64,000 nt of DNA from Gammaproteobacteria bacterium. GTDB taxonomy: Bacteria; Pseudomonadota; Gammaproteobacteria; Eutrophobiales; Eutrophobiaceae. The translations under genes and the position numbers were made by a program. Shown piece by piece: positions 3,202 to 27,400 of the stretch (positions within the stretch are counted from its first letter, which is position 1; every line of letters begins with the position of its first letter). The notes beneath the pieces were generated by a model. That model saw only the letters and a list, made by a program, of their open reading frames with translations, ran no database searches and had not been told where the DNA came from. Location of the stretch: the NCBI GenBank assembly GCA_022826885.1, contig JAJDUB010000073.1, positions 65,388 through 129,387 on the forward strand, read 5' to 3'.

Positions 3202-3291
3202 ACTGTCTCCTTAACCAGTGGTGGCCCCCACAACAGGCCACATGTCAAAGACATAATCAATGTTGTGGATTGTAACCCTCGCCCATCGTCC

Positions 3292-3343
3292 GGGGACGGA
3301 TTTCAAACATGCCCCCGCATGTTGTAAGCGGGGGTCCGTCTCC
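3292..3343. repeat. REP-like palindrome, composite copy (GGGGACGGA ... TCCGTCTCC with a nested hairpin)
   Basis: The arms GGGGACGGA (3292-3300) and TCCGTCTCC (3335-3343) enclose 34 nt. That insert itself contains CCCCCGC (3312-3318)-N9-GCGGGGG (3328-3334). The arm sequence is the same as at 9399, 14138, 50657 and 53187. Confidence 0.6.
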
Positions 3344-3363
3344 TTTCTTCCAGGCCGGAAATA

Positions 3364-3440
3364 TGGTAGGCGCGATTGGATTCGAACCAACGACCCCTAC
3401 CGTGTCGAGGTAGTGCTCTAACCAACTGAGCTACGCGCCT
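3364..3440 (-). tRNA. tRNA-Val (anticodon GAC)
   Basis: The reverse complement AGGCGCGTAGCTCAGTTGGTTAGAGCACTACCTCGACACGGTAGGGGTCGTTGGTTCGAATCCAATCGCGCCTACCA folds as a 77-nt cloverleaf. It has a 7-bp acceptor stem, GCTC/GAGC D stem, CTACC/GGTAG anticodon stem, loop TCGACAC and an encoded CCA. Confidence 0.9.
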
Positions 3441-3469
3441 TTGGACTTCACAGTTTATAATAAACCGGA

Positions 3470-10314: not shown

Positions 10315-12195
10315 CTATGCTACCTTGACAATATCAAGGGGCTGTTCATCAGCGCCGAGGGGAACAAGGTCGGCCAGAATTCTTATTATCTCGTCGTCAT
10401 CCGCATCCGCAAGGGCCCGTTCCAGGCGGGCTACCACCTGTTTGACCCTGTTCCAGTCAGCCGGGGCATGTTTTGCCCGAAACACTTTCTTGTTTCCGGT
10501 TTCTTCCTTGCCTTCACTGTCATAAAACAGTTCTTCGTACAATTTTTCGCCGGGCCGTAAACCCACATACTGAATTTCGATATCCTTGCCGGGTTCTTTT
10601 CCGGATAAACGGATCATCTGTTCGGCCAGGTAACCAATCCTGACCGGAGAACCCATATCCAGTACGAAAATACCTCCCTCTCCCTCCACCACGCTGGCCT
10701 GCAAAATCAACTGGCACGCTTCTCTTGCCGTCATGAAATAGCGGGTAATATCAGGATGGGTTACCGTCAGCGGCCCCCCTGCCCGTATCTGTTCCCTGAA
10801 TAACGGGACCACGCTGCCGTCCGAACCCAGCACGTTACCGAACCTGACGGTAATAAAACGCGTAGCGGAAACCGCGTTCATGCCTTCGCAGTAGATCTCA
10901 CCGGCGCGCTTGGTCATCCCGAGCATATTGGTGGGATTGACCGCTTTATCGGTGGAAATAAACACAAATTTGTCGCAATGGAATTTGCTCGCGGCCTCGG
11001 CGACGACCCTGGTGCCGATGATATTATTTTTTACGGCTTCACCGGGATGGGCCTGTAACAGGGAAACGTGCTTATACGAAGCTGCATGAAATATCAAGTC
11101 CGGGCGGTAGTTCCCGGTAATATTCTCAACCGCCCGTTGATCACAGACATCGCCCAGCACCGTGACCAGTCTGACCTGCGGATATTTCGTTTCCAGTTCC
11201 TGCTGTATCCGGTACAGGTTAAACTCACTGCGTTCAAAAACAATCAGCGCACTCGGCGCAAAGTTGGCAACCTGCCGGCAAAGCTCCGTTCCAATGGATC
11301 CGCCGCCGCCTGTGACCATGATGACCTTGCCGGACAATCCGGCCTGCATCATGTCCCGGTCCAGTTCGATTTTTTCCCTTCCCAGCAGGTCCTCGATGGA
11401 GACTTCCTGTATGGCATTCACGGTCACCTGTCCTGAAATCAAATCCTCGAGCCTGGGCAGGGTTTTAAATGCCGTATTAGCGCTCTCACAGATCGCGACC
11501 AGTCTTTGCATTCTTTCCGATGACAATGAAGGGATAGCTATGATAACCAGGTCGACAGCATGCTTGTTTACGACCTCCGGAATTTCATCGAAAACGCCCA
11601 ATACCCGTATACCATGAATTTCCCGGCCTGTTTTATCCGGATCATCATCAATCAGACCCACGGGCAGGTATTGCGCCCGGCTGTGCCTTAACATATCCCT
11701 CAGCAATCTTCCTCCGGCATCACCGGCGCCGATCACCAGAACCCGCTTGCCGCTGCTGATTCCCACCCGGTGGTCTTTCAGGTATCGATAGATGATCCTG
11801 TCTCCCCCGAGAAAAGCGAACAACAGGATTGCATACAGCGGAATTACCGTCCTGGGCACCGCTTCCATCCTGGTGACGAGGAAAACCGCCAGCGTGATGA
11901 TTAAGACCCCGAGAAAAATCGATTTGCCGATGCGCACAAGATCGGGCAGGGAAGCAAAGCGCCAGATACCGCGATACAGCCCGAAAATCACATAGCTGAA
12001 CGCCTGGCAGACAATGACTACCGGCAACACCAGGGTCGCAGTTCGCAGGAATTCTTCAGGAATGGTACCCAGGTTGAACCTCAACCAGTATGCCAGGTAC
12101 CACGCCACCGGGATCATCAATACATCATGCAGAAATATGGTTACCCGCCCGTAGGATTGCAACATGGATGACTTTTTGCCTTTTTTATCGTTCAT
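10315..12195 (-). CDS. membrane-bound nucleotide-sugar 4,6-dehydratase (CapD/WbpM/PglF family)
   Basis: 626 aa. It has about four N-terminal TM helices, a first Rossmann region (VLVIGAGDAGG), then the SDR catalytic domain (VTGGGGSIGTEL ... YKHVSL..MGMTKRAGE). Confidence 0.88.
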   Translation of the reverse strand: MNDKKGKKSSMLQSYGRVTIFLHDVLMIPVAWYLAYWLRFNLGTIPEEFLRTATLVLPVVIVCQAFSYVIFGLYRGIWRFASLPDLVRIGKSIFLGVLIITLAVFLVTRMEAVPRTVIPLYAILLFAFLGGDRIIYRYLKDHRVGISSGKRVLVIGAGDAGGRLLRDMLRHSRAQYLPVGLIDDDPDKTGREIHGIRVLGVFDEIPEVVNKHAVDLVIIAIPSLSSERMQRLVAICESANTAFKTLPRLEDLISGQVTVNAIQEVSIEDLLGREKIELDRDMMQAGLSGKVIMVTGGGGSIGTELCRQVANFAPSALIVFERSEFNLYRIQQELETKYPQVRLVTVLGDVCDQRAVENITGNYRPDLIFHAASYKHVSLLQAHPGEAVKNNIIGTRVVAEAASKFHCDKFVFISTDKAVNPTNMLGMTKRAGEIYCEGMNAVSATRFITVRFGNVLGSDGSVVPLFREQIRAGGPLTVTHPDITRYFMTAREACQLILQASVVEGEGGIFVLDMGSPVRIGYLAEQMIRLSGKEPGKDIEIQYVGLRPGEKLYEELFYDSEGKEETGNKKVFRAKHAPADWNRVKQVVARLERALADADDDEIIRILADLVPLGADEQPLDIVKVA

Positions 12196-12267
12196 TACAT
12201 ACTGAAACCTGCACCGGCGTTCGCCGGTATCATACTACAGCCGGGTGCTGAGTAATAGTGAACGGAA

Positions 12268-13257
12268 TTGGCTTACTCGCCCTTCATACCTTATTATCAG
12301 CACTTCATGCTAAACCTGCAGGAAATAACCGAACCATCCCGCCATGGCGACCTGCCGGAAGGGATCAGCGTGGTTATGGTGTCATACTGGACCGGTCCCG
12401 TCTTGTCCGAGGCCATCGAGGCGGTGCTTGCGCCGGAGCAGGCAGCCGTAGTCGAACTCATAGTGGTCGACAACGGCAATCCGCCGGCAGTCACCCGGGA
12501 ACTTGCCCAGCGGGCAGGGGAGGAAGCGCGGCTGACACTCATCAGCGGTCACGGCAACGTCGGGTTCGCGCGCGGCTGCAACATCGGCGCGCGCCGGGCC
12601 AGGGGTCGCTACCTGTTGCTGTTGAACCCGGACTGCCGCCTCAGCCCCGGCGCGCTCCCCGCCTTGCTGGCTGAAGCCGAAAGCCTGGGCCATGACTGGA
12701 TGCTGGGCTGCCGCGTGCTCAACCCCGACGGGAGCGACCAACGCGGATCGCGGCGCGCCCTGCTCACTCCGTACACTGCCCTGGTTGAAACATTCCGTCT
12801 TGACAGGCTGGCGCCGGGGTTGTTGCGCCGCTACCGGCTCAACTGTCATGACAGCCCGCTCCCTGCAGAGACCAGTTGCGTGCCGGCCATCAGCGGCGCT
12901 TGCATGATGCTGCCGGCCGCGACTTTCCATGCCGCAGGCGGCATGGACGAGGGTTATTTTCTGCATGTGGACGATCTCGACCTCTGCTTCAGGCTGCACA
13001 GGACCGGAATCCCGATCTATTTCACGCCGCACGTGGAAGCAATCCATCACGCCGGCAGCAGCCGAATCAACCCGGTGCAGGTGGAGTGGCACAAGATGCG
13101 CGGCTTCCTGCGTTATTTCCGCGTGCATTACCACGGCCTGCGCTGGTTGCCTGTACTCGGACCCCTGGCCGCCGGTATCCTGTTCCGGTTCGTGGTAAAG
13201 GTAATACAATCACTGTTCCACCAGGCGCGGCACGGGACACATGACGCCCGCCGCTGA
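12268..13257 (+). CDS. family 2 glycosyltransferase
   Basis: 329 aa with VSVVMVSYWTGPVL..LIVVDNGNP..LLLNPDC, a GT-A/GT2 signature. ATG at 12307 is an alternative start. The 3' end overlaps the next gene by 17 nt. Confidence 0.8.
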   Translation: MAYSPFIPYYQHFMLNLQEITEPSRHGDLPEGISVVMVSYWTGPVLSEAIEAVLAPEQAAVVELIVVDNGNPPAVTRELAQRAGEEARLTLISGHGNVGFARGCNIGARRARGRYLLLLNPDCRLSPGALPALLAEAESLGHDWMLGCRVLNPDGSDQRGSRRALLTPYTALVETFRLDRLAPGLLRRYRLNCHDSPLPAETSCVPAISGACMMLPAATFHAAGGMDEGYFLHVDDLDLCFRLHRTGIPIYFTPHVEAIHHAGSSRINPVQVEWHKMRGFLRYFRVHYHGLRWLPVLGPLAAGILFRFVVKVIQSLFHQARHGTHDARR

Positions 13258-14137: not shown

Positions 14138-14161
14138 GGGGACGGATTTAAATCCGTCCCC
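14138..14161. repeat. REP-like perfect palindrome GGGGACGGATTTAAATCCGTCCCC
   Basis: A 24-nt perfect palindrome. It starts 7 nt after the SDR stop and overlaps the last codons and stop of the convergent rmlA gene. Confidence 0.7.
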
Positions 14162-15047
14162 GGTTGTGCAGCTCAAGCTCATCCGCCAGTCGCAGCAGGT
14201 ATTCGCCGTAGCCGTTCTTGCGCAGTTCATGGCCGATAGCAACCAGTTCCTCGCGGCTGATCCAGCCGTTCAGGTAAGCGATCTCCTCGGGAACGGCGAT
14301 ACGCTGGTTCTGGCGCTTCTCTACGGTCTGGACAAAACCGGCAGCCTCAACCAGGCTGTCATGCGTCCCCGTGTCGAACCAGGCAAACCCGCGGCCCAGC
14401 AACTCCACGCGCAGGTCGCCGCGTTCCAGGTAACGTTCGTTGACAGAGGTGATCTCCAGTTCTCCCCGGGCACTCGGCTTGATGTCCGTAGCGATGTTGA
14501 CGATATCGTTGTCGTAGAAGTACAGTCCCGTCACCGCCCAGTGAGAGCGCGGGAGCGTCGGTTTTTCCTCGATGGAGGTTGCCCGGCCAGCCTCGTCGAA
14601 GGAAACTACCCCATAGCGTTCGGGATCGCGAACCTGAATAGCAAACACCGTGGCTCCATGCTGCTGAGAAGCCGCCAGATGCAACTTATCCGTCAAACCG
14701 TGCCCATAAAAAATATTGTCACCGAGAGCCAGGGCACAGGAGTCGTCCCCGATGAATTCCCTGCCGATCAGGAAGGCCTGGGCCAACCCGTCAGGGCTCG
14801 ACTGTACGGCGTAGCGCAGCGACAGACCCCAACGGCTCCCGTCGCCAAGGAGTCGCTGGAAGTCGGGCCCTTGTTGCGGCGTGGTGATTACCAGGATGTC
14901 CCGGATTCCCGCCAGCATCAGGACGCTTAACGGGTAGTAGATCATTGGCTTGTCGTAGATGGGCAGGAGTTGTTTGCTCACCACGCTGGTCACGGGATAG
15001 AGTCGCGTGCCTTCTCCCCCGGCGAGGATGATACCCTTGTATTTCAT
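14148..15047 (-). CDS. rmlA: glucose-1-phosphate thymidylyltransferase
   Basis: 299 aa starting [41 protein letters not shown], textbook RmlA. Overlaps rmlD by 4 nt. Confidence 0.96.
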
Positions 15048-15949
15048 ATGCCTTCCCTCAGGCAGAGTTCCGCGACCAGTCTTTGTACATGGAACTGCCA
15101 GGGGGGTGGGTAAATTCCGAATGTATCGGTTAATTTCTGCGTATCAAGGCGAGAATTCAGTGGACGTTTTGCCGCTGAGCGATACCGGGCAGTCGAAACA
15201 GGGTGTACATTTTGCGAACGCAGGCGCCGTTTATTGCTGAGACTGTGCATCTGATCAAGCAGATAGCAGGCAAAACCGTGCCAGCTTGTCGAACCGGAGG
15301 CAGTCAGATGGAAGACACCCGCCACCTGCCCTCCGAATTCACCACCGTGCGATACCCGATACAGACAGGTAGCGGTTGCATCCGCAATAAATTCGGCACT
15401 GGTAGGCGCGCCGACCTGGTCGGCAACTATTTCCAGCCTGTCCTTCTCGCCGGCAAGGCGCATGATAGTTTTAACGAAATTGGAGCCACGCGCCGAGTAT
15501 ACCCAACTGGTGCGGAAAATCAGGTGAGAGCACCGACTCTCCTGTAAAGCTATCTCTCCTTGAAGCTTGGTCCTGCCGTAGGTATTGAGTGGACCGGGCT
15601 TGTCGGTTTCGGAATATATGCCCGACTTTTCGCCGTCAAAGACATAATCCGTGGAATAGTGAAGCAGCCATATATTGCGGCGCTTTGCCTCATTCGCCAT
15701 CAGTTCAACGGCTTTCGCATTGATAGTTTCCGCTTTGTCCGGTTCGGATTCGGCTTTGTCTACGGCCGTGTAGGCAGCGGCGTTGACTACGACATCCGGA
15801 CTGTAATCATGAATCGCCGCTCTCACGGCGCGTGGGTTCTCCAGGTCCACGGTCTGCCGGTTGCAGGCTTGCAAGGAACCCAGAGGGGCCAGCGACCGCT
15901 GCAATTCCCAACCCACCTGTCCGTTGGAACCGAACAACAATATCTTCAC
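15044..15949 (-). CDS. rmlD: dTDP-4-dehydrorhamnose reductase
   Basis: 301 aa with [16 protein letters not shown].., [12 protein letters not shown] and STDYVFDG, typical RmlD. It has 4-nt overlaps on both sides. Confidence 0.93.
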
Positions 15950-17004
15950 CGGTATTGTTTCCTGACCCAGTTATGATAGTCGCCGCCGGTAGTCGCGGCT
16001 ACCCAATCCTGGTTTTCCAGGTACCATGATACGGTCTTGCGAATACCCGACTCGACCGTTTCTGACGCCCTCCAGCCGAGGTCCCGTTGAATCCTGGAGG
16101 AGTCCATGGCATAACGCCGGTCATGTCCGGGCCTGTCCTTAACGAGAGTGATCAGGGATTTATAGGATTCAGCACCGTTTCCGGGGCGTATTTCGTCCAG
16201 AATTTCACAAAGCATATTCGCAATCTCAAGATTGGTCTTTTCGTTATTGCCTCCGATATTGTAAACCTCTCCGACTTCACCCGCTTCAAGAACCTGCCTG
16301 ATGGCGGCACAGTGATCGCGCACATAGAGCCAGTCACGCACCTGCCTGCCGTCGCCGTACAGGGGTAGTGATTTTTGTGCAAGAGCATTGTGGATAAACA
16401 ATGGAATCAGTTTCTCGGGAAACTGAAACGGACCATAATTATTGGAACAGTTAGTGGTGAGCACAGGCAGTCCATAGGTATGATGAAATGCGCGAACCAG
16501 GTGATCGGAAGCAGCCTTGCTGGCGCTGTAGGGATTGTTTGGCTTGTAGCTGTTGTCTTCCGTAAAAGCCGGCTCGTCGGGTTCAAGCGCGCCATACACC
16601 TCATCGGTAGACACATGCAGGAAACGGAACCCGGCCTTTTCCGTCTCCGGCAGTTCACTCCAGTGACTCAAGATGTTATTCAACAACCTGTAGACGCCGA
16701 CGACGTTAGTCCCGATAAAATCCTCCGCGCAGTGAATGGAGCGATCAACATGTGATTCAGCGGCAAAGTTGATGACCGCGCGGGGTTTGTATTCAGCCAG
16801 CAGTTTCGGGATTAAGGCAGAATCGCCAATATCTCCCTGGATGAAGGCATAGTTCTGATTGTCTTCAACGGAGGTCAGGTTTCGCAGATTACCGGCATAA
16901 GTGAGCTTATCCAGGTTGACTACAACTTCGTTTCGGGTTTGCAGCCAGTCAATTATAAAATTCGCACCGATAAAACCGGCGCCTCCGGTAACGAGAATAG
17001 TCAT
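15946..17004 (-). CDS. rmlB: dTDP-glucose 4,6-dehydratase
   Basis: 352 aa with ILVTGGAGFIGANF, HVSTDEVYG and YSASKAASDHLV, typical RmlB. Confidence 0.96.
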   Translation of the reverse strand: MTILVTGGAGFIGANFIIDWLQTRNEVVVNLDKLTYAGNLRNLTSVEDNQNYAFIQGDIGDSALIPKLLAEYKPRAVINFAAESHVDRSIHCAEDFIGTNVVGVYRLLNNILSHWSELPETEKAGFRFLHVSTDEVYGALEPDEPAFTEDNSYKPNNPYSASKAASDHLVRAFHHTYGLPVLTTNCSNNYGPFQFPEKLIPLFIHNALAQKSLPLYGDGRQVRDWLYVRDHCAAIRQVLEAGEVGEVYNIGGNNEKTNLEIANMLCEILDEIRPGNGAESYKSLITLVKDRPGHDRRYAMDSSRIQRDLGWRASETVESGIRKTVSWYLENQDWVAATTGGDYHNWVRKQYR

Positions 17005-17080
17005 GGAACCTGTATCTTATACTGTAAGCTGTCAGGCATGAAAGATATGGCAGGAGCGATAGTACTGATGACCGTACCGG

Positions 17081-17635
17081 CTATTCAAACGGCGTGATGA
17101 GTTCGGCAAGTCGCGGATGTCTACCATCCTTGTTCGAAAGAACGGCTTCCTCGTCAGAAATTGGCCAGTTTATCCCAAGCGCGGGGTCATTCCACAGCAG
17201 CCCCTTGTCGTGGTCAGGCGCATAATAATTGCTGACCTTGTATATCACCTCGGTGTCCGGTTCAAGCGTCATGAATCCATGAGCAAAGCCGATCGGAACC
17301 AGGATCTGGTTCCAGGCCTCCGCCGAAAGCACGGCGCTGACATGCCGGGCGTAAGTCGGCGAGCCTTGACGCAAATCAACAGCAACATCGAACACCGAGC
17401 CGCGCGCCACGCGCACCAGTTTGTCCTGGGCGAAGGGCGGTGTCTGGAAATGCAACCCGCGCACCGTTCCCTTATCAGCCGAGTAAGAGTGGTTGTCTTG
17501 CACGAAGTCGATGTCGATCCCAACCGCGGCGAGCGTTTTTCTGTTATATGTCTCGGAAAAGAAACCGCGCCGGTCGCCGTGCTTCCCGGGGCTCAGCAAC
17601 CTCACATCGGGGATGTTCAAATGTTCAACCTGCAT
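17081..17635 (-). CDS. rmlC: dTDP-4-dehydrorhamnose 3,5-epimerase
   Basis: 184 aa with GDRRGFFSETY, VRGLHFQ and YAPDHDKGLLWNDP, typical RmlC. Confidence 0.95.
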   Translation of the reverse strand: MQVEHLNIPDVRLLSPGKHGDRRGFFSETYNRKTLAAVGIDIDFVQDNHSYSADKGTVRGLHFQTPPFAQDKLVRVARGSVFDVAVDLRQGSPTYARHVSAVLSAEAWNQILVPIGFAHGFMTLEPDTEVIYKVSNYYAPDHDKGLLWNDPALGINWPISDEEAVLSNKDGRHPRLAELITPFE

Positions 17636-17637
17636 TC

Positions 17638-18297
17638 CTAATCCGGCAACAGACGATAGAAGGACCGTATCCCATGTTTTGAAAGATAGAGCGGCCGGTA
17701 GGCGGTGATATTATTAAAACCACAGGTGGTAAACAGCCTGAAATATGATGTTTCAGTATGCCAGAAAGAGTTTCTGTTGGAGACGGAAGCCATGGGATTA
17801 TCCTTTTCAGGGTACAGGATCCCCTCATACCCGTTTAATTGTACCAGCGAGTGTTGCCATTCATCCACAGGGAAACGGACCACCTGATCCGGGCAATATA
17901 CCTGTGTATCAACCAGAACTTCCTTCCCCCGGCAGCGCCGCAGAAGCGCGATCTGATCATCGAGTTCAAAGTGGTAAAGTAAACCGAAAATCAGCACGAC
18001 GTCATAGGCCTCCAGGTTGAACTCGCGTACATCTTTGTGGATAAAGTGAATTCCCTGTTTTTCTATATCTTCGGGCACGCGTTCGTCGCGGCCGTCTACC
18101 GCGAACACCTCAGCGCCGAACTCCCTGGCAATGCGGGCAAACGCACACGGGCCCGCGCCCAGGTCGGCCACCCACTTGCCCGATACATTAACCTCACCGG
18201 TCAGCAACCTGCGAAAAATTTTATGGCGCAGGTGTCCTTCGTCCTGGTGTTTACCCAATTCCAGGGTGGTTATTTTCAGTTGATCACTGCCGGCCAT
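17638..18297 (-). CDS. class I SAM-dependent methyltransferase
   Basis: 219 aa with the motif I-like VADLGAGPCAFARIAREFGAEVFAVD and the downstream DVVLIFGLLYH. Confidence 0.75.
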   Translation of the reverse strand: MAGSDQLKITTLELGKHQDEGHLRHKIFRRLLTGEVNVSGKWVADLGAGPCAFARIAREFGAEVFAVDGRDERVPEDIEKQGIHFIHKDVREFNLEAYDVVLIFGLLYHFELDDQIALLRRCRGKEVLVDTQVYCPDQVVRFPVDEWQHSLVQLNGYEGILYPEKDNPMASVSNRNSFWHTETSYFRLFTTCGFNNITAYRPLYLSKHGIRSFYRLLPD

Positions 18298-18358: not shown

Positions 18359-19018
18359 TTATGCTCTCACCATTGAAAATTCTTTACACCAGAACTGCAT
18401 CGCTTCAATCCATATGTTGTCCAGGGAGGTGAAGTAAACAAAATCTGAATCTCCGGTCACTGCATCAGCCGCCTCGATTTGCAAAATATGGGCGCGGGGT
18501 TGCGCCTCGCCGAAGCGCTGCAACAAGTCACGCCCGTACACGCGATAATGATAGTGCTCTTCCGGTTTAGGGTAACCCCATTCTTTTGTCCCGGCATGAT
18601 GTTTCGGATTTGGTACCGAGAACTGAAGGAAGCCCGTAGGCTTGAGAATGCGCAAGATTTCGCGGAATGCCTGACGGTCATTTTCAACATGTTCCAGGAT
18701 ATGGTTGCAGATCACGATATCATACAACCCGTCTTCACGCTCTATCTGCTGTAAGTCCAGGGAATTACGCGAATCGTAGATTGAAACTTCGAAACCACCG
18801 AACCATTTTTCTTCCACTGTAGGCTCCTCACTGAACTGCAAAACCTGTTTCTGCCCGAATATCTCTACGGGAATGCAACTCCATACACGGCGAATTAACC
18901 TGTGACGTTCCAGTGATCCGCAATCGGCACATACCGGCAACTTTCCCGTTCGGGATTTTCTTCCGTAAGGCCCCTCCTTGAACAGGATACCACCGCAGAT
19001 ATTGCACTCTATAGCCAT
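18359..19018 (-). CDS. SAM-dependent methyltransferase with N-terminal Cys4 zinc ribbon
   Basis: 219 aa. CNICGG..(19)..CADCGSLERHR forms a Cys4 ribbon, followed by DIVICNHILEHVENDRQAFREILRILKPTGFLQFSVP (Methyltransf_11-like). Confidence 0.75.
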   Translation of the reverse strand: MAIECNICGGILFKEGPYGRKSRTGKLPVCADCGSLERHRLIRRVWSCIPVEIFGQKQVLQFSEEPTVEEKWFGGFEVSIYDSRNSLDLQQIEREDGLYDIVICNHILEHVENDRQAFREILRILKPTGFLQFSVPNPKHHAGTKEWGYPKPEEHYHYRVYGRDLLQRFGEAQPRAHILQIEAADAVTGDSDFVYFTSLDNIWIEAMQFWCKEFSMVRA

Positions 19019-19063: not shown

Positions 19064-20218
19064 TCAACGCGACCGGCCTTTTGTCATTGATGTCCTTATA
19101 AGCAACTGCGCAAAAAAGTGCAACAGATTATTCAATGTCCAGTAAAGCACCATGGCGGCGGGAAACGGGTATAAAAGAAGTAGAAAAGCCAGCGCCATCC
19201 AGCAAAGGTTGCGCCTTTGGCGGGTACGCTCTCTGTTTGACCACAGGTCATTCCGGAACGTCAGGACAGACAGATATGTCACCGCAAACATTACGAACGG
19301 CAGCAGGTGAACAGTCTCCCCGAACAGCGGAATATTGAAGGGTATCACGGCAATTACGTCCGGATATGCCAGGTCATCGATCCAGAGAAAGGATTGACCC
19401 GCCAACTGCGGCATTTCTCCCAGTGCATTGAAAACAGCGATCCAGATCGGGACCTGAACCAGCACGCCCAACAGCGGCTTCAACGAATAGAACGGTGTAA
19501 CTCCCAGGGTCCTGTGAACTGCCATTATGCGATTGTGAGCCTCTTCACCGTCATAGTTCTCCTTGATATCGGCTATTCGCGGTTCGAGCAACGACCGGAC
19601 CCGACTGACCTCGTCCTGCAAACCGGCAACCACATTATTAACAGGGAATAGCGCCAGTTTCAGCAGGATGCTGAACACTACTATTGCAAGGCCCCAGTGA
19701 TTGACCGCGTGAGCCTGGATCGTCACCAGGGAATACTCGACGACCTTGGCCAACCAGGATAACGGCGCCCACAGGTGTGCATACCGGACCTGGTCCAGTT
19801 CGGGCGCTACCGTATGGAGATCGGATTTCTTTACAAGTTGCAGGCGCCCCGGTTCGACCTGCGTTTTCAGATACTCCAGCGTACCTTTCCGACCGCTCAG
19901 ACGCAGGCCAGGATCGGTGCCCTGCACCAACAACACCTTGAAGCGTGCGGCCACGGCCAGCCACGTACCGTTCTCCAGGATGAACGCATCACCATGCTCC
20001 AGTGGTTGAAAAACATCTTTTCCTACGAAATAGAAATTCACGTCGTTGTAATAGGAGGCGAGTCCGGCAAAATGATGCGTCTCTCCCGTGGCCTGGAACT
20101 CACACCAGGGGTCCGCAGAACTGCTCATGCAGTGCTCATGATCGGCTGACCATCCGGTTACGCACGCACACGAATTGCCTGCGGCCAGCAACAGGTATAA
20201 AAAACAGACTATACGCAA
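19064..20218 (-). CDS. YidC/Oxa1-family membrane insertase paralog
   Basis: 384 aa. WGLAIVVFSILLKLALFPVNNVVAGLQDEVSRVRSLLEPRIADIKENY..HRTLGVTPFYSLKPLLGVLVQVPIWIAVFNAL..FLWIDDLAYPD..PAAMVLYWTLNNLLHFFAQ matches the conserved YidC core helices. A signal/lipoprotein-like N-terminus and a ~150-aa periplasmic domain precede the core. Confidence 0.8.
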   Translation of the reverse strand: MRIVCFLYLLLAAGNSCACVTGWSADHEHCMSSSADPWCEFQATGETHHFAGLASYYNDVNFYFVGKDVFQPLEHGDAFILENGTWLAVAARFKVLLVQGTDPGLRLSGRKGTLEYLKTQVEPGRLQLVKKSDLHTVAPELDQVRYAHLWAPLSWLAKVVEYSLVTIQAHAVNHWGLAIVVFSILLKLALFPVNNVVAGLQDEVSRVRSLLEPRIADIKENYDGEEAHNRIMAVHRTLGVTPFYSLKPLLGVLVQVPIWIAVFNALGEMPQLAGQSFLWIDDLAYPDVIAVIPFNIPLFGETVHLLPFVMFAVTYLSVLTFRNDLWSNRERTRQRRNLCWMALAFLLLLYPFPAAMVLYWTLNNLLHFFAQLLIRTSMTKGRSR

Positions 20219-20231
20219 AACCGATCGCTCG

Positions 20232-22274
20232 CTAATGCAGGCATTGACGAAGTTCTCTCACCGTATCGACGATGCAGACCCGAGTGAAGTCCTCTCGTTT
20301 TCTCAACCTGGCTGTTATGGTATCTTCCCCGACAAAGCGCGTTATTCGTTTACCGTCCCCTACCGCAATTAAATGATGACGTTCCCTGTCACGATAACGT
20401 ATCCAGACTTTTTTCTCGTCTGTTATACCGAAATCGTTTATTTCAAGAAATTCGGCTACAGGGAATTGGGTAAAGTTTTTCTTTGTCCAATTGAATTCCC
20501 CTGTCTTCTTCCAGGAGGATTTTTTTGTAAGCGGACCGGACACTTCATATTCACCCAACTGAAGAAACCTGTCGTCATGGCCTGCTTCAACCCGTGATTG
20601 CCTCGTATGGTAATACCGCCGTACCCGGTTATCCGGCTTCTCATTCAAGAAATCAACGCCGTCGAAATCAACGCCCAGTTGCAACAACTCCGACATGGTT
20701 TTTGGTATGTCGGTTAGCGATATCTCAGCATCGACGGTTACCAGTTCGCCCCGTCCACCAGGTGGTTTAAGCAATAATAATGGATTGCTGTTGCCGATAT
20801 ACTTTGGAAAATTACGCACGTCGTCGTCAGGACCTGGCTTGAAATCCTGAAATGGCAAGTTCATCCCGTGGTCGCCATGTACCAGTATTGTTGCCGTGTC
20901 ATATATCCCGGAGCGTTTGAGTTTATCCAGCAACTTGACCACCTGGACCAGCGCACAGCGGGCCTGGTTATAGATATGGATGTATTCACGTTTGAGTTCC
21001 TTTTCCGAAAACCTGCAATTCGAGTCCGTAACAAAAGGCGGGTGAGGCGTAATCAGGTGAAACAGCTTATACACCCTGGACTGCTCTGCAAACCTGAACC
21101 TTTCAATCACTTCCTTCAGGAACTGAATGCCTATGTGATGGTTGAAAGTCAACCCCAGGTCCCGCGCATATAACCCGGAATACCTCCAGCGCCCCTGGTT
21201 GTATATTGATTTCTTAAGCAGTTTCGGCGCACTGCGAAACAATGACAAATCAAACAGGTAGGCAGTTTGATAATACACCACTTCCCGGACACTTATTGCA
21301 GAACTGTAAGGCTTGGGCATAAAGAAAAATTGCGAATAAAATTCCTGGTCCTTAATCACAATAAACGGGGTGGCGACATCGATTGTGAAACCGCTCCGTG
21401 TTGCCGCTTCCAGAATATTCGGGACATGTTTCACGGGCGTTGCCGTACCCATTCTGGCCACGCGGCTATTGAACAGGTAAGTTTTCATCGGTTCGTTATT
21501 CGTATATTCCCGGCCGGTGAGAAACGCTGCAAACGAAAGCTGTGTGACTTCGGACGCCGTCAAGGTATCGGGATAATACAAAAAACCGTCCAGTGCTGAT
21601 GCGATCTCATTGTCGTTCCTGATGACGTCCTGAAAAAGACCGGACTGAAATCCGTCCAGCACAATATGAAGTACGTTTTCTTTCCTGGAAAAATTGCTGA
21701 TCGCACTCATTTCAGTGTTCACATCCGGGCCTTCATCATCGGCCTCGTTGCCTGATGAAATCAGCGCCTCCAGGTTGGCCGGAATTTCGTCAAGGCTGTC
21801 GCTGCGTGATAATACCAGCACGCCCAGGTTGATAAGCTGGAACAGACAAATACCGGTAAACAACATCCTGATGTTGTCAAGCACCTTGTGCCTGAACGCG
21901 TATATGAGCCCACCGCTGAAACCGTAGATAATTAAATCCACGGCAATTTGCATTGTTGTGAAGGTATGCAGACCCTGGCCATCCAGGACGTTGAGGGACT
22001 CGCTTAACAAAAAAAACTGGATGGTACTGACGACTACGAGGAACAAAAGCGTATTGACAACCAACAGATGACTTCTTTTCCCTGCCAGGGTAATCATTGC
22101 GAAGATAACGATAAAAATTACGGCGCCGGCCTTGACCAGGAATACCCAGAACTCGAACAGCGGGATAATGAATTCACTGCTGTTCGTCACGAACAGGACA
22201 GCACATGGAACCACCGAGAGACAGATGGAAGCAGTTACTGCAATATACAAGTGGTTCGAAATAACACTCTTCAT
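20232..22274 (-). CDS. polytopic membrane sulfatase-like transferase (LtaS/OpgB/phosphoglycerol- or phosphoethanolamine-transferase-like)
   Basis: The N-terminal multi-TM region is followed by an alkaline-phosphatase-superfamily domain (VLHIVLDGFQSG, LTASEVTQLSFAAFLTG, HLITPHPPF, ILVHGDHG). I trimmed the start to ATG 22274-22272, which forms an ATGA overlap with the upstream stop. Confidence 0.7.
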   Translation of the reverse strand: MKSVISNHLYIAVTASICLSVVPCAVLFVTNSSEFIIPLFEFWVFLVKAGAVIFIVIFAMITLAGKRSHLLVVNTLLFLVVVSTIQFFLLSESLNVLDGQGLHTFTTMQIAVDLIIYGFSGGLIYAFRHKVLDNIRMLFTGICLFQLINLGVLVLSRSDSLDEIPANLEALISSGNEADDEGPDVNTEMSAISNFSRKENVLHIVLDGFQSGLFQDVIRNDNEIASALDGFLYYPDTLTASEVTQLSFAAFLTGREYTNNEPMKTYLFNSRVARMGTATPVKHVPNILEAATRSGFTIDVATPFIVIKDQEFYSQFFFMPKPYSSAISVREVVYYQTAYLFDLSLFRSAPKLLKKSIYNQGRWRYSGLYARDLGLTFNHHIGIQFLKEVIERFRFAEQSRVYKLFHLITPHPPFVTDSNCRFSEKELKREYIHIYNQARCALVQVVKLLDKLKRSGIYDTATILVHGDHGMNLPFQDFKPGPDDDVRNFPKYIGNSNPLLLLKPPGGRGELVTVDAEISLTDIPKTMSELLQLGVDFDGVDFLNEKPDNRVRRYYHTRQSRVEAGHDDRFLQLGEYEVSGPLTKKSSWKKTGEFNWTKKNFTQFPVAEFLEINDFGITDEKKVWIRYRDRERHHLIAVGDGKRITRFVGEDTITARLRKREDFTRVCIVDTVRELRQCLH

Positions 22275-23434
22275 CTGCCCGGCCCCCTGGCAGCTTCCAC
22301 CTCTGACAGAATTTGCAGCAGGCACCTGGCCCCGTAGACACCGCTTTCACCGGGGTTAAAGACCATGTTACCAGGCCCGGAACCGGTAATGGCCGACCGC
22401 TTCAACAGTCCCTCGATCTTCTCCGTTACCCGATCAATCTCATGCAGTCCGAGGATATCGCTACGCCCGGTTTTTCTGATCCTGCATTCCAGCGGCTCCA
22501 TGGCAATCCTGTGATGGTCCGGATTATTGACCTTCATCGGCACATCCACATACAACACCGGCTTGTTGAGAGCGAACATGTATTCGAGCGCCACTCCGGA
22601 CCAATCACTGATCATCATATCCGAGTCATGTAAAGTATCCTCACCCACAACGTTCAATTCATGGGTGAATAACGGATCCGCCTCGTATTGTGTCAAAATT
22701 GCGCCGACCTTGTCCCCGGCAAATTTAAGCGTCTGCGGATGGGGTCGAAGTGTTACCCGGTATTGGCCTCGAAGCAAGTGATCGACAATGGATGCACCAA
22801 TGCCCGATTCAATCATACCTCCAGGGCCCCAGGATGGAGCAACCAGTACATGACTGTGCGCTCCAGCGGAATTCTCTTCCCGGGAACGATCCCGGGACTG
22901 ACTGAGAATGGTATCCAGGCGGCCATATCCATGCTCCACCAGCCTCTTGGGACGCAGGTTGAATTCCGCTTCCATGGCCCGTATTTCCGTGATGTGGTGA
23001 GGCCCGGCGCAAAAAATCGTATCGTAATGATCAAACGCTCCTTTTCTATAAACCATATACAGACTTACCAGCGAATGCTGCACGTAGACGTAATGAACAT
23101 CATGTCGGGAACGCTTGACCTGGTACTGGTGCAGGTCGGGCATGGTCATGACGAAAACATTCGTTTCGATATTCCTGAACAACCAGTCCCGTACATGCCC
23201 CTCGTCAATCACGAATTTCCGGTAATCCGGATGCGCAATGAGTAAGCCGGGATCATCCTCATCCGAAGTGATATAACAAACCGGCACGTCTGACAGCGCC
23301 AGCACTTCCACAACCAGGGGTTGAAGGTGTGGCCAGTAATTCCTGCCTTCCGAATAGAAGGTGATCCGGCGGGTGCGTCCGGGCAGTTGAATATATCGGA
23401 TTACATTGCACAGGTGTTGAACGAATCTGAACAT
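22271..23434 (-). CDS. CDP-glycerol/polyol-phosphate glycerophosphotransferase-like protein (TagB/TagF family)
   Basis: 387 aa. HGYGRLD, VLVAPSWGPGG and SDMMISDWSGVALEYMF resemble the TagF-family motifs (GYPR.D, ILYAPTWR, SD.LITDYSS..FDF). Confidence 0.6.
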   Translation of the reverse strand: MFRFVQHLCNVIRYIQLPGRTRRITFYSEGRNYWPHLQPLVVEVLALSDVPVCYITSDEDDPGLLIAHPDYRKFVIDEGHVRDWLFRNIETNVFVMTMPDLHQYQVKRSRHDVHYVYVQHSLVSLYMVYRKGAFDHYDTIFCAGPHHITEIRAMEAEFNLRPKRLVEHGYGRLDTILSQSRDRSREENSAGAHSHVLVAPSWGPGGMIESGIGASIVDHLLRGQYRVTLRPHPQTLKFAGDKVGAILTQYEADPLFTHELNVVGEDTLHDSDMMISDWSGVALEYMFALNKPVLYVDVPMKVNNPDHHRIAMEPLECRIRKTGRSDILGLHEIDRVTEKIEGLLKRSAITGSGPGNMVFNPGESGVYGARCLLQILSEVEAARGPGR

Positions 23435-23468: not shown

Positions 23469-24128
23469 CTATATTTTTCTGGCAAAAACCCGGCTGACGA
23501 GGGGGTCTTCCTGCTTGTATTTGGCCATGCCGGAACCGGTTACGGCATATTCTACGGAAAACCCGAGATTATCAATGAGTTTCAGTTGAAATTTATCCGT
23601 ATCCAGGTAACGCCGAAAATGATCCGGATAGTGTTTGTAACGGTCGGCATCCTCCTTAGTCCTGAATTCAAAAAAAACCCGCTCATTCGGTTTCATACAA
23701 TCAGAAAGCGCCTCCAGAAACCAGTCTTCTTCAGACTCATCCAGTGAGTGCAGAACAAAGCGGGAGTAATGCACCAGAAAACCGTTATTGTTTTTTTTTC
23801 GAGCGATCTGAACGACGTTTTCAACGTCCGGACGGCAGGACAGGTCACCCTGCAGAAATATGACTTTTTCATGAAGCCCTCTCAACCTGGCCTCATGAGC
23901 GCCAATTTTCACTGCTTCAGTGGATAAATCCATGGCTAACATCATGTGTCCTTGCGCGGCGAAGAACAGGGAGTCCCTGCCGTTACCGCTGCCCCAATCC
24001 ACTATGGTCGAATGTGAAGCAATTTCAGATGCAACCAGGGCGCAAAACTGGGTGGGCACCAGTGAATGCCGCTGCTTGTAGAACTCTCTCCAGTACGTTT
24101 TGCGCTGTTCACGGCTTCTGTTCGTCAT
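23469..24128 (-). CDS. class I SAM-dependent methyltransferase
   Basis: 219 aa with IVDWGSGNGRDSLFFAAQGHMMLAMDLS (motif I). Confidence 0.75.
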   Translation of the reverse strand: MTNRSREQRKTYWREFYKQRHSLVPTQFCALVASEIASHSTIVDWGSGNGRDSLFFAAQGHMMLAMDLSTEAVKIGAHEARLRGLHEKVIFLQGDLSCRPDVENVVQIARKKNNNGFLVHYSRFVLHSLDESEEDWFLEALSDCMKPNERVFFEFRTKEDADRYKHYPDHFRRYLDTDKFQLKLIDNLGFSVEYAVTGSGMAKYKQEDPLVSRVFARKI

Positions 24129-24176: not shown

Positions 24177-24422
24177 TCATTCTTCCTGAGACTTTTCAGG
24201 TTCAGGGTCCGGTTTGTCGGCGGATCGGGTCTGCCTGGTAAACAGCGCTTTCAGTTTGTACCAGTATGTTTTGACAGTTAATCCCAACGCTACAAAAAAG
24301 CCGATGATTAACGACATGATGGCACTGCCTGAGCCCGGATCAATATAAGCGACGGCAGGTAACCAGGCCGTAACCAGAACGGCAAATACAATAAACCGGA
24401 CGACCCACATAATTCGTTTCAT
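24177..24422 (-). CDS. small two-TM membrane protein (hypothetical)
   Basis: 81 aa from ATG 24422-24420 (the ORF track begins at TTG 24434). It has two hydrophobic helices flanking YIDPGSGS and an acidic/basic tail. The ATGA start/stop overlap with the upstream giant gene argues that it is translated. Confidence 0.55.
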   Translation of the reverse strand: MKRIMWVVRFIVFAVLVTAWLPAVAYIDPGSGSAIMSLIIGFFVALGLTVKTYWYKLKALFTRQTRSADKPDPEPEKSQEE

Positions 24423-27400
24423 GACTTTTTCCAATAGAATGAGAGCATCTGATTCGTGATAACATCCGGGGCGTGCTCGGAGCTTGGAGACTCCATTCTG
24501 AGATCGATTCCATCGCCAGCCATAATCTCTACCATGTCTTCTCCAAAATCAGTATACACCAAAGACTTCCCCCCCCCGGGCGCACTGTGGTAATGCCTGG
24601 GTAATACGAACACATCCTCCGGGCCGCTGGTATCCACCCTGAACACGGTTTTGGAACGCATCGGACGCTGTGAGGGTATGCTGAAGATATGCAAACCGCC
24701 TGGTTTAAGGATCCTGTTTACATCCTGGAAGCCGACAAAAGGCTTGCGAACATGTTCAAAGATATCCGAGGACAACACCAGGTCGAAGGAATTGTCTCCG
24801 TAAGTCAGGTTCATCAGATCCTGGCATTGAACGTCCTCGCGATACTCACCGGGAGCAACGTCTTCCCAGAAGTAGGAGTTAATGTAACCGGGCAGCTTCC
24901 GGAACAGTTTGCGGAACGGCCCTATCAGCCCGGGTTCATAAATCTTGAGATTCTGAAATTCGGCTTCGTTCACTAAATCGGCAAGGTGCCTGGAGCCTTC
25001 CCTGGAGAAATGATCAAGAATGAGTTGCGCCTGTTCCCGGTAACGCAGACTGGCTTCACAATTCCCACACCGGTATGTCTCCCTGATAGATTGTTCCTCG
25101 CGGCGCAGATAACCGGTATGCCCACACACCGCGCAGGAGTCAATGTACCCGTCCTTGTCGAAGTCAGCAGCGGCAGGCTTGCTGTGCGCTGCTTCGCGCC
25201 TGGCGAATTCCTTACCGACCAGTGTTAATATACGTGTCACCCTCTCGTCCCATGAGTTGGCTTCCAACAGATTCCGCATCCGTTCAATGTTGCCGGAGAC
25301 GGGGTTATTTTCCAGACAGTGGCTGATCCGCTCAATGAACTCGTCCGGGTTACGGCCAACCTGCACGAACTCGCGAAAATCCCCTATATTGGCAATGTGA
25401 GTGCTCACGACCGGCACATGCAGGGAAAAATACACATAGAGCTTCAGTGGATTCATACTCCGGGTAAGTTCGCTGTCCAGGTGGGGAATCATCGCCACGT
25501 CGAAGTGACGGATGTAGCGAAGCGCTTCCTCGTAGACACGAACTCCGAGGAAACGGACATTGCTGAATTTGTCCAGCTTCCTGATCTCCCTGCTCTTGTG
25601 CATGGAGCCGATGAAGACCAGGTTCCAGTCGGGCCGTTTGCTTGCCACGGTCGTCAACAGGTCGATATCGATGCGCGTGATGTCCAGGTTCCCGGCGTAC
25701 CCGATCACCGGTCCCTTGATGCGTCTCAACTCGGCGGGTTTTTTCCAGTGCCGCGCCTCATCTTCCAGTATCTCGGCCGCGTTGGGGAGCAAATGAATAT
25801 TATCAGCGTACTCCTGCATGTCTTCAAAGACACTGCGGCAATTGGCAAAAGTGACGTGAGTGCGCGCCAGGATCTCTTCATAGTTGCGGCGTAATTTCTC
25901 CTTGTATCGAGGCTTGCCGGGCCATTTACGTTGATCGTCGATCACGTCGGACACGACCAGGCCGGGCTTGAACCGATCCGCAATCATGGGGAAATCGAAT
26001 TTATTGGGGCAAACCCAGAAGACCGTGCGCCGTTGGCCGATCTGCTGCTCTCTCATCACCCGGGCCAGGTAATCGAGATAGTCCCCCTCAGCGGGCAGCA
26101 CCCAGTTCCGGAAACCTGAGGCACGATGCCGACCGGCGAAGATGAACGTATCGGAACGAACTTTACCCCTGTCCTGCAGGCGCAATCTCCGTTTCAGGGT
26201 ATTGGAAAGAACCAGGCCGGCATGACTGTGACGGCCACCTTGCCCGGACTTGAGAACGTCATGACCGGAACTGAAGATATTGACCGGCGCATCAAAATGA
26301 AGAATACGGTTAACCCGGGGGTCCCTGGCCAGGTACTTCACCAGCATATCCTGGCGCCGTCCGTAAATGCCGGTATCGTTTTGTTTCCAGAAAAATACGA
26401 TGTCTATCTTGTCGTCGACATAAGAACCGGCCTTGCGTACGTTAACGTCCGCTGCCTGGGCGGAGGGTGGAAGCAGACTTGCATCAGAAGCAGGCTGACC
26501 TCCCGCGACGACCTGCGCGCTCACCCGGGGCAAACCGGTCTCACCGGAGAATATCCTGCGGTGATAGGCGACCAGTTCGCGGAATGCATCCGGTATCGGA
26601 ACCGGATTGTTCAAAACCCGGTCGATGGTATCCTGCAGCCTGGGCAGGTTGGCGGCGTAGCTGTATTCACGTAAAAAAATCTCCCGGTTTTGCGTCGCCT
26701 TGTGTTTGTATGCATCGTAATCGCTGAAGATCTCATCGATCTTCCTGTCCAGTGGCGTATCGCCCAATAACTCCAGCAGTCCCTTCTTCGCGAGATTCAC
26801 CAGGGGCGGCACATCTGTCGCCAATACCGGAATACCCATCGAAAGTCCGTCCGAGAACTTGCCGGGCATTTGAAACCGGGTGGTAACCTGCTCCATGTCC
26901 TGGAGCAGGCAAATCAGGTCGCCGGCACTCAGGTAGCCGGGTAAATCAGTGAATGGCACGTTGGGAACCACTTTCACATGCGCGGACTTGATGCCGGCGA
27001 AAAATCGGCGCGCCTCGTTGTCCACCGGGGAACCGACGATCAGCAGCTTGTAGTCCGGGCGCTTCAGGGTCTCCAAAGCCGTCACAATGCGCGTGAAGCC
27101 CTTGTGCATTCGGGGTGTGCCGGCGAACAGGATAACCTTATCTTCCGCAGTGAAGCCAAGTTCCGCACGGATCGCATCACGCGGGTAGGCAGCCGGGTCA
27201 AAATCGTGATCGTCGCGGATATGCGGCAATACCATGCCGCCGAATTTCTTCCTCAATTCCTCATTGGAGACTGTGACCTGATCGAACATCTGTATAAGTG
27301 ATTCGCCGTAACGGGTCCAGGTCTCGTCATGCGGACAGAAAAAGTCCGGCCTGTGACGTTTTCGTTTCACCTGCTTCAGTGAAAGTGGTTTACGGTTCCT

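Follow-up and report, generated by a model that had tools for sequence, protein, structure and literature searches.

YidCp, a YidC/Oxa1-family protein encoded in a mobile gene cassette with the small membrane protein c11 and a TagF-like transferase

The open reading frame (ORF) at 19064–20218 on the minus strand of a 64,000-nucleotide stretch of DNA from a Gammaproteobacteria bacterium (assembly GCA_022826885.1, contig JAJDUB010000073.1, positions 65,388 to 129,387; the whole stretch is referred to below as the window) encodes a member of the YidC/Oxa1 family, named YidCp here. Judged from its sequence, YidCp is a structurally intact, divergent YidC/Oxa1/Alb3 protein that displays every family feature open to testing and for which insertase activity is predicted. 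YidCp, a small membrane protein termed c11 and a TagF-like transferase represent the three invariant components of a mobile cassette, in which a sulfatase-fold membrane enzyme is frequent and non-obligatory. Family membership, fold, cassette composition and linkage, the topology features of c11 and a set of interchangeable donor genes are all direct observations. The cassette would most likely place a small phosphoryl-type substituent on exported glycoconjugates, and within this decoration system YidCp is tentatively interpreted, at slightly less than even odds (about 0.45), as a dedicated Sec-independent insertase or partner for c11.

Fold and domain organization of YidCp

The first-pass annotation of this DNA had assigned the 384-aa protein to the YidC/Oxa1 family, and every check run agrees with that assignment. 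The Pfam model 60KD_IMP (PF02096) matches residues 175–375 at 94.7 bits against a cut-off of 35 (E 7.6e-27), TIGR03592 reaches 106.2 bits against a cut-off of 84.3, and the four peptide motifs quoted in that annotation are all present in the translation. A Protein Data Bank (PDB) profile search with 22 family members retrieves YidC2 of B. halodurans (3wo6, 2e-13) and YidC of E. coli (3wvf, 3e-13). The AlphaFold model computed from the family alignment (pLDDT 70.6, pTM 0.65) places helices between residues 151 and 381, and its significant Foldseek matches are YidC structures only (6al2, E 5e-8; 3wvf, 3wo6 and 3wo7). The five-transmembrane (TM) core fold and the cytoplasmic C1 hairpin by which the YidC/Oxa1/Alb3 family is recognised are both present in the predicted structure. 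Additionally, the C1 hairpin and the P2 motif FLWI.DLAYPD are kept in the family, and about 60 positions are invariant across it. The positive charge of the insertase groove is provided by Arg72 in B. halodurans YidC2 and by Arg366 in E. coli YidC; in YidCp the profile match aligns Lys187 with Arg72 of 3wo6, within the helix LIRLALLPL, and this position is Lys in 37 of 38 family sequences.

The short extracytoplasmic domain of ~150 aa noted in the first reading is confirmed by hydropathy and by the model, which together place it at residues ~22–170. This domain is modelled as mixed beta/alpha (pLDDT 60–84) and contains the conserved motifs F.GLASYYN, WLAV..R..VLLV and APELDQ.RY.HLW. A phmmer search with residues 22–170 against 1.84 billion representatives returned 70 clusters, among which no ~550-aa YidC was found; the full-length members are essentially all 365–430 aa long and carry the domain at the same position. 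Residues ~52–107 also match repeats in two giant proteins, P0404 and P0419 (2273 and 1870 aa, with 8 and 5 copies), and a sub-threshold Pfam match (E 0.023) connects the domain to DUF2807, an adhesin-head GIN domain. The domain may have a beta-rich, adhesin-like repeat origin.

The N-terminus had been described as signal- or lipoprotein-like. The first half of this description stands, in that a hydrophobic signal or anchor segment occupies residues 3–21. A lipoprotein signal was rejected, because the Cys residues at this end are not conserved in the family; YidCp accordingly has no general lipobox and is not a lipoprotein YidC of the Gram-positive style. The TTG start codon is supported by homologues that begin with MRI(V/I)CF and by reading of the junction; a gap of 13 nt separates it from the stop codon of the sulfatase-fold gene. 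Close relatives (L001, P0016 and P0019) start YidCp at an ATG (MPAL...), which in them overlaps the 3′ end of the sulfatase-fold gene. The counterpart of this ATG in the window (20218–20244, minus strand) is not in frame with YidCp and reads into a stop codon, so that only the TTG at 20218 is left as a start; the sequence comparison makes the shift look like a small indel relative to the relatives, with the signal segment intact. At the opposite end the window protein terminates in ...IRTSMTKGRSR, and the cytoplasmic tail beyond the last TM helix has a median length of 0 aa among 40 family members. No database record was found for the exact sequence of the window protein.

Comparison with housekeeping and Gram-positive YidC

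YidCp is not a housekeeping-type YidC. It fails 16 of 16 NCBIfam YidC equivalog models, the best being NF002356 with 87.9 bits against 460 (the cut-offs are all at least 276), and Pfam and NCBIfam scans detect no P1 domain (PF14849/TIGR03593). The basic ribosome-contacting C-tail is missing throughout the 40 family members mentioned above. Genomic context was compared in 40 loci with YidCp relatives from named genomes plus the window, 41 in all, by tblastn with the window genes followed by unbiased all-against-all ORF clustering, within a reading range of ±10 kb per match; six more loci (L041–L046) were obtained from reverse look-ups. The rpmH-rnpA-yidD-yidC-mnmE context surrounds YidCp in none of the 41 clustered loci and does not occur among the called genes of L041–L046.

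E. coli YidC (3wvf/6al2) is the best structural match (E 5e-8) and shares with YidCp an N-terminal anchor, an extracytoplasmic domain, the five-TM core with a charged hydrophilic groove, the C1 helical hairpin and the P2 motif FLWI.DL..PD. The two differ in the extracytoplasmic domain, which is a P1 beta-supersandwich of ~320 aa in E. coli YidC and the family-specific domain of ~150 aa in YidCp; in the groove residue, which is Arg in housekeeping YidC and Lys in YidCp; and in location, as housekeeping YidC is encoded at rnpA/mnmE and YidCp in a transferable cassette. Structural alignments of YidCp with YidC structures give 14–17% identity.

The NCBI pipelines label members of the YidCp family 'membrane protein insertase YidC', a name that speaks for YidCp being the housekeeping protein, or else a redundant or decaying duplicate of it. 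This explanation is hardly credible in view of the wide margin by which the 16 equivalog models are failed, the missing P1 domain, basic C-tail and rnpA/mnmE context, and the patchy, horizontal-gene-transfer-like distribution of the family, which extends over at least six phyla or classes and comprises Gamma-, Alpha- and Betaproteobacteria, Flavobacteriales, SAR324, Bdellovibrionales and Acidobacteria; decay is further contradicted by the strong conservation of the ~60 invariant positions. Family members occur in Vibrio, Legionella and Marinicella, where a canonical yidC is expected. Because of this occurrence, the patchy distribution and the absent rnpA/mnmE context, it is very unlikely that YidCp is the sole yidC of its genome. 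Within the window, a second YidC was not found by tblastn.

The resemblance to the small Gram-positive YidC proteins proposed in the first-pass annotation is superficial. The Gram-positive equivalog models score 54.8 bits against 377 (NF002803, SpoIIIJ) and 43.9 against 425 (NF002687, YidC2), and YidCp has the extra domain of ~150 aa. The core of Gram-positive YidC is similar in size to that of YidCp, with the profile match to 3wo6 at 2e-13, whereas Gram-positive YidC is a lipoprotein that has hardly any extracytoplasmic domain and, in some cases, a long basic C-tail, and YidCp has neither a conserved lipobox nor a tail. The Gram-positive pairs (SpoIIIJ/YqjG, YidC1/YidC2 of S. mutans, and YidC2 of B. 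halodurans) do offer a precedent for a second, specialised YidC in one cell; unlike YidCp, these paralogs have no link to a specific biosynthetic cassette. Gram-negative bacteria are usually credited with a single YidC, and the abstract of one paper (PMC10588454) gives this general view, namely that Gram-negatives, unlike Gram-positives, lack YidC paralogs.

Linkage of the cassette across loci

Unbiased clustering of the 41 loci returned the cassette genes as the only recurrent neighbours of YidCp. The TagF-like (Glyphos_transf) gene is found in 30 of 40 loci and in the window (31/41), usually directly upstream of YidCp and at 35–88% identity, and c11 is likewise found in 30 of 40 loci and in the window (31/41). 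A sulfatase-fold homologue is present in 25 of the 41 loci, sometimes in two copies, and the methyltransferase MT3 in 16 of 40 and in the window. Six of the ten loci without a TagF-like gene end at most 1.9 kb upstream of the YidCp gene, and the other four are orphan genes of Halieaceae; the absences of c11 have the same explanation, with the exception of locus L038.

The linkage also holds when the search starts from the partners. Three TagF-like homologues outside the YidC match list were looked up in reverse, and all three lie in arrays of a small ORF, a methyltransferase, Glyphos_transf, Sulfatase as an optional member, and 60KD_IMP; look-ups from two c11 homologues lead to the same cassette. 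When the best-120 lists of each family, each drawn from 5.8 billion proteins, are compared for shared contigs of at least 8 kb, YidCp and TagF coincide on 25, YidCp and c11 on 23, and all three on 13.

A role for YidCp as an accessory of the rml/O-antigen genes was rejected, as the rml genes, the giant glycosyltransferase (GT) gene and wzm accompany it in the four closest relatives only. The cassette is also found among housekeeping genes, beside secA/argJ in L042 and ruvCAB in L043 and L044, and beside a type IV pilin gene in L046, and is therefore self-contained and mobile rather than an O-antigen appendage. In L046 (5232–15869) it lies directly downstream of the pilin gene, a pilS/pilR-like pair and a gene for a 661-aa protein without a Pfam match. 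By analogy with PptA-type phospho-form modification of pilin, the acceptor in L046 may be the pilin rather than a polysaccharide.

The first-pass annotation had suggested that the insertase is dedicated to the polytopic enzymes of the locus, and a reading of this kind would make YidCp an insertase or chaperone chiefly for the sulfatase-fold protein, and also for Wzm, the WecA-like protein and DUF6077. In the window the sulfatase-fold gene does lie immediately upstream across the 13-nt gap, its homologues recur in 25 of 41 loci and are in some cases doubled, and YidC is known to help polytopic proteins fold (PMC7618853). However, YidCp co-varies with c11 and the TagF-like gene and not with wzm/wzt, wecA, rml or the giant GT: wzm, wzt, wecA-like and DUF6077 genes lie near YidCp in 0–12 of 40 loci, most of the wzt matches being generic ABC ATPases of ~35–40% identity. 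YidCp is, moreover, kept where no sulfatase-fold gene lies within 8–10 kb, and the sulfatase-fold homologues are ~25% identical across loci, whereas the TagF-like protein and c11 are far better conserved. Large periplasmic domains additionally need SecYEG, and in E. coli the cooperation with Sec uses the P1 domain and the C-tail, both of which are absent from YidCp. A general service to the large polytopic enzymes is thus quite improbable.

Several observations at individual loci accompany this comparison. The flanks of the orphan YidCp genes of Halieaceae encode a TonB-dependent receptor, acyl-CoA dehydrogenases, an aminotransferase and PPDK. Another Halioglobus metagenome-assembled genome (MAG), L045, contains a complete cassette of the MT3-bearing type (variant A, below), and some genomes may therefore hold two YidCp copies. 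Directly downstream of YidCp, seven loci, mostly of variant B (L005 at 11001–12401, and L006, L021, L025, L033 and L036 among them), encode a ~466-aa protein whose one match is a weak one to Formyl_trans_N over residues 321–383. A reading of the cassette as a defence system was rejected after a PADLOC scan of five cassette proteins gave nothing meaningful.

The small membrane protein c11

The c11 gene was located by tblastn, and its ORF and junction were read directly. The c11 family comprises 792 members of ~75–85 aa, all annotated as 'hypothetical', and neither Pfam, searched to E 10, nor NCBIfam gives a match; c11 is an unannotated small-protein family. The mean top-residue frequency in 30 sequences is 0.35 in the signal peptide, 0.81 in the mature core and 0.31 in the tail. 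The signal-peptidase motif is AxA in 22 of the 30, with a small residue at −3 and Ala at −1 in every case. The mature core consists of 38 near-invariant residues, Y(I/L)DPGSGSAIMSAIIGFFVAxGLxxKTYWYK(I/L)KSLF, in which the basic segment KTYWYKLK of the window protein lies next to the TM helix, and the acidic tail that follows is variable. The motif IDPGSGS was not found in the searchable literature.

The arrangement of two hydrophobic segments separated by a very short acidic loop gives c11 the layout of M13 procoat. A 2025 review names this combination as what substrates that 'fully depend on YidC' have in common (PMC7618853). M13 procoat, Pf3 coat and F0c are likewise small proteins with one or two hydrophobic segments and a very short translocated acidic region, and M13 procoat also has a signal-peptidase site in common with c11. 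Unlike these substrates, c11 is chromosomal and has a near-invariant mature core, and its dependence on YidCp would follow by analogy with them. On the side of the insertase, YidCp lacks the features for co-translational and Sec-coupled work; the missing basic C-tail is in keeping with small clients being handled after translation, and less so with docking to the ribosome.

The extreme conservation of c11 also bears on a different role, that of a consumable carrier. In such a scheme the TagF-like enzyme would esterify the Ser of DPGSGS, YidCp would translocate the loaded loop and signal peptidase would cleave it, after which the sulfatase-fold enzyme would pass the group to an acceptor, or the modified c11 would itself be the end product. 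YIDPGSGS and the helix that follows are almost invariant across phyla, and their flanks vary freely; if the loop were modified, the need for a dedicated insertase whose groove Lys is conserved would be accounted for, as would the crossing of the membrane by the group in the absence of a flippase. DltX, a small membrane protein acting as acyl carrier in the Dlt pathway, offers a parallel. The scheme is nevertheless purely inferential and costly, consuming one 80-aa protein for each group transferred, and TagF-type enzymes with a GT-B fold are known to act on hydroxyls of glycans and polyols, not on peptides. It is accordingly regarded as very improbable.

The TagF-like transferase and the variable donor slot

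The TagF-like protein matches PF04464 at 34.7 bits against a cut-off of 22.1, over residues 150–295 only, and has no TM segment. Its AlphaFold 2 model (pLDDT 88.8) shows the two Rossmann domains of a GT-B fold, with the TagF-like capsule polymerase 8qoy and UDP-GlcNAc 2-epimerases as structural neighbours. Neither single-sequence nor profile searches gave a PDB sequence match, and the protein is therefore placed in a divergent branch of PF04464. It probably uses donors activated with cytidine monophosphate or diphosphate (CMP/CDP), given that cytidylyltransferase genes fill the adjacent slot in two of the cassette variants, B and C.

This slot, between c11 and the TagF-like gene, is occupied by one of three alternative gene sets, no two of which were seen together; L021 has none of the three. 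In variant A, found in the window, in 16 of 40 loci and in L041–L045, the slot contains MT3, a class I S-adenosylmethionine (SAM)-dependent methyltransferase. Variant B, found in nine loci, encodes a ~995-aa PPDK_N/PEP-utilizer protein, a Peptidase_C26 amidotransferase and a nucleotidyltransferase. The ~995-aa protein matches the equivalog NF004508 at 1025 bits against 501; this model is unnamed, and from its domain architecture we take the protein to be a glutamine kinase of the Cj1418 type. The best NCBIfam match of the amidotransferase is 'gamma-glutamyl-CDP-amidate hydrolase' (NF045546), which at 137 bits lies below its cut-off of 250, and the match of the nucleotidyltransferase is generic. 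PDB searches for Cj1417/Cj1418-type structures returned generic amidotransferases and phosphoenolpyruvate (PEP) synthases only. In L038, an Acidobacteriaceae MAG, the genes for the kinase-like protein and the amidotransferase of variant B are in fragments within positions 1–3500 (317+222 aa and 112+107 aa, respectively), and no c11 was detected there. These fragments could reflect pseudogenisation or assembly errors.

Variant C was predicted from gene sizes ahead of the domain scan, as a set of phosphonate genes, and then found. It is present in L011, L029 and L046 and encodes a CTP_transf_like–PEP_mutase fusion, a thiamine pyrophosphate-dependent decarboxylase resembling phosphonopyruvate decarboxylase, and an iron-type alcohol dehydrogenase. 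From these gene contents, what the donor sets would have in common is a small group that is centred on phosphorus and activated on cytidine, a kind of donor in line with a TagF-type enzyme. Guesses that can be offered for variant A are a group of the methyl-phosphate type, or a methylation that follows the transfer.

The kinase, amidotransferase and nucleotidyltransferase of variant B resemble the donor-making trio (Cj1418/Cj1417/Cj1416) of the C. jejuni O-methyl-phosphoramidate (MeOPN) capsule modification pathway (Cj1415–Cj1422). The cytidine diphosphoramidate donor of that pathway is made from glutamine, ATP and cytidine triphosphate (PMC11800397). The comparison covers the donor genes; the transferase of the cassette is TagF-like, a Cj1415-type kinase was not seen in the cassette, and the window cassette, being of variant A, is without MeOPN-type genes. 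We know of no YidC-like or c11-like gene in the C. jejuni MeOPN locus. The variant-C genes, which do not occur in the window, correspond to the early phosphonate steps and CMP activation, as in the PntC-Ppm systems; such fusions of early steps and CMP activation are described for cell-surface phosphonates (Rice et al. 2019, PMC6697681). In that work the phosphonate genes are paired with LicD-like transferases and glycosyltransferases, and TagF-like, sulfatase-fold or YidC-like partners are not mentioned.

The sulfatase-fold enzyme and membrane translocation

The sulfatase-fold protein matches PF00884 at 37.5 bits against a cut-off of 25 and has at least four hydrophobic (TM) segments in residues 21–172, followed by an extracytoplasmic catalytic domain. 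Its matches to LtaS are weak (4uoo, E 0.0027; NF053595). By analogy, this is the architecture of lipid-dependent periplasmic phosphotransferases. The systems built around GtrABC, and around LtaS, GacH, EptA/PptA and OpgB, share with the cassette a logic of cytoplasmic loading, membrane translocation and transfer by an extracytoplasmic enzyme of the alkaline-phosphatase fold with N-terminal TM helices. They differ from it in that the cassette has no flippase of the GtrA/Wzx type, holding a YidC paralog and a mini-protein instead, and in that the match to LtaS is weak (E 0.003).

The presence of a cytoplasmic transferase and of an enzyme with an extracytoplasmic domain, yet of no recognised flippase, leaves room for YidCp itself, perhaps with c11, as a flippase or scramblase for a lipid-linked phosphoryl-type donor. 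The TagF-like enzyme would then load a lipid from the CMP/CDP donor, YidCp would flip it, and the LtaS/EptA-like enzyme would transfer the group to the acceptor, in a three-component system analogous to GtrA/GtrB/GtrC. Alkaline-phosphatase-superfamily transferases such as LtaS, EptA and OpgB normally draw the group from a lipid donor, and ordinary outer-leaflet lipids would not bear the uncommon head groups to which variants B and C point. Moreover, lipid scrambling by insertases, YidC among them, is documented both in vitro and in silico (PMC11047089; PMC11997395). This activity is, however, a non-specific scrambling of phospholipids and no directed transport. In addition, the sulfatase-fold gene is missing nearby in ~40% of loci, some of them with 10-kb flanks (L014, L026 and L030), a glycan exported by an ABC transporter can be modified in the cytoplasm, so that a flipped donor is unnecessary, and c11 would be left without a role. 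For these reasons a flippase function is considered unlikely.

Taken together as one broader idea, in which YidCp and c11 form a new kind of step in the export of a small group of the phosphoryl type (phosphoramidate, phosphonate or methyl-phosphate-like), by lipid flipping or by way of a loaded c11, translocation of the group itself is a possible, if doubtful, function.

Proposed role of YidCp

The interpretation preferred here, that of YidCp as the dedicated insertase or partner of c11, can be laid out in steps for the window cassette. The target of decoration would be the ABC-transporter-dependent polysaccharide encoded around it. YidCp would insert c11 post-translationally and independently of Sec, and might possibly remain bound to it as a stable partner; perhaps it also aids the folding of the polytopic sulfatase-fold enzyme. 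Once in the membrane, c11 may use its basic juxtamembrane segment to hold the TagF-like enzyme there or to activate it. Three elements of this scheme are inferred: the insertase–client relation of YidCp and c11, the acceptor and, for variant A above all, the chemical nature of the group that is transferred.

Several points weigh against this proposal. The co-occurrence of c11 and YidCp alone cannot tell a client from a subunit or from a protein that merely functions alongside, and insertion of a procoat-like protein should lie within the capacity of a housekeeping YidC, which leaves the need for a dedicated paralog unexplained. The near-invariance of mature c11 (0.81, across phyla) suggests an active role of its own, outside an insertase–client model. 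Four loci of Halioglobus/Halieaceae (L007, L008, L012 and L039) carry an orphan YidCp that has the family N-domain and no c11, TagF-like or sulfatase-fold neighbours. Moreover, tblastn found no CDP-amidate genes in the window and no genes for a CDP/CMP donor in its cassette, and the model of YidCp reaches moderate confidence only (pLDDT 70.6).

Genomic neighbourhood in the window

The YidCp gene lies between the sulfatase-fold gene and two methyltransferase genes (18359–19018 and 17638–18297) in a block of low GC content, as the first-pass annotation had described it: the GC fraction is 0.48–0.54 between 16 and 25 kb and reaches up to 0.65 elsewhere. The surrounding region is an ABC-transporter-dependent polysaccharide locus. 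On the minus strand, ATGA stop/start overlaps connect the giant GT gene to c11 (24419–24422) and the TagF-like gene to the sulfatase-fold gene (22271–22274), which indicates translational coupling of both pairs. These junctions also corrected two starts, giving c11 81 aa in place of 85 and the sulfatase-fold protein 680 aa in place of 697. Together with the short gaps, the overlaps tie the cassette genes of the window into one operon. The coordinates of all features are listed in Table 1.

Table 1. Features of the YidCp cassette and of the surrounding polysaccharide locus (positions in the window)
Feature	Coordinates	Strand	Description
YidCp gene	19064..20218	−	384 aa, TTG start; PF02096 94.7 bits, TIGR03592 106.2 bits, YidC-only fold matches
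YidCp N-terminal hydrophobic signal or anchor segment, residues 1–21	20156..20218	−	hydropathy peak at residues 3–21
YidCp family-specific extracytoplasmic domain, residues 22–170	19709..20155	−	~150 aa; no PF14849 match
YidCp insertase core, residues 171–384	19064..19708	−	5 TM helices and C1 helical hairpin, groove Lys187, no cytoplasmic C-tail
Sulfatase-fold (alkaline-phosphatase superfamily) membrane enzyme	20232..22274	−	680 aa; ATG overlaps TagF-like stop (ATGA); LtaS/EptA-like
TagF-like (Glyphos_transf) soluble GT-B transferase	22271..23434	−	387 aa; PF04464; tightest-linked YidCp partner
MT3, class I SAM-dependent methyltransferase	23469..24128	−	219 aa; variant A; Methyltransf_25 and TehB-like matches
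c11	24177..24422	−	81 aa; signal peptide, AXA site, YIDPGSGS, one TM helix, KTYWYKLK, acidic tail; ATG overlaps giant GT stop
Sulfotransferase / coiled-coil / 2×GT1 / methyltransferase protein (giant GT)	24419–29524	−	1701 aa
wzt	29527–30282		
wzm	30279–31184		
wecA-like gene	31367–32383		
rmlCBDA	14148–17635		

Further features of the region stand apart from the cassette. The giant 1701-aa protein, encoded directly downstream of wzm/wzt, begins with an N-terminal sulfotransferase and continues through a coiled coil and two GT1 domains to a C-terminal methyltransferase. The coiled coil is built from near-identical repeats of ~30 aa (LEERTATLKAREKRIEALEGSAERLRGN...), and the protein recalls a polymerase and terminator of the WbdA/WbdD type with a coiled-coil 'ruler', possibly adding a sulfate cap. 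The two methyltransferase genes directly downstream of YidCp, both on the minus strand, are shared with the closest relative (L001) only and lie outside the conserved cassette; the second of the encoded proteins has a Cys-rich N-terminal segment (CxxC...CxxC). The polysaccharide region is bordered by a gene on the plus strand (43923–48266) for a 1447-aa RTX protein with nine HemolysinCabind stretches and Peptidase_M10_C; the GC skew of this gene is strongly positive (0.19–0.27), and a gene of the same type flanks the cassette in L041.

Implications

The first-pass annotation knew of no YidC paralog described in O-antigen or capsule clusters, and the searchable literature indeed contains none; nor does it describe a YidC paralog linked to polysaccharide, teichoic-type, phosphonate or phosphoramidate clusters. 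No description seems to exist of the complete cassette, in which one transfer core is combined with three interchangeable donor sets.

YidCp represents a distinct, horizontally spread subfamily of YidC that has its own extracytoplasmic domain and is tied to one biosynthetic cassette. This subfamily is a natural setting in which the basis of client specificity in an insertase can be studied. The TagF-like protein provides a candidate transferase, and the accompanying proteins candidate membrane machinery, for the decoration of surfaces with phosphonate or phosphoramidate outside Campylobacter, where transfer is poorly understood. Should YidCp prove to move a group linked to a lipid or peptide, and not just to insert a protein, the scramblase activity recently proposed for insertases would gain a physiological example, and if YidCp and c11 do form an export step, a protein insertase would have been repurposed for the modification of small molecules or glycoconjugates.

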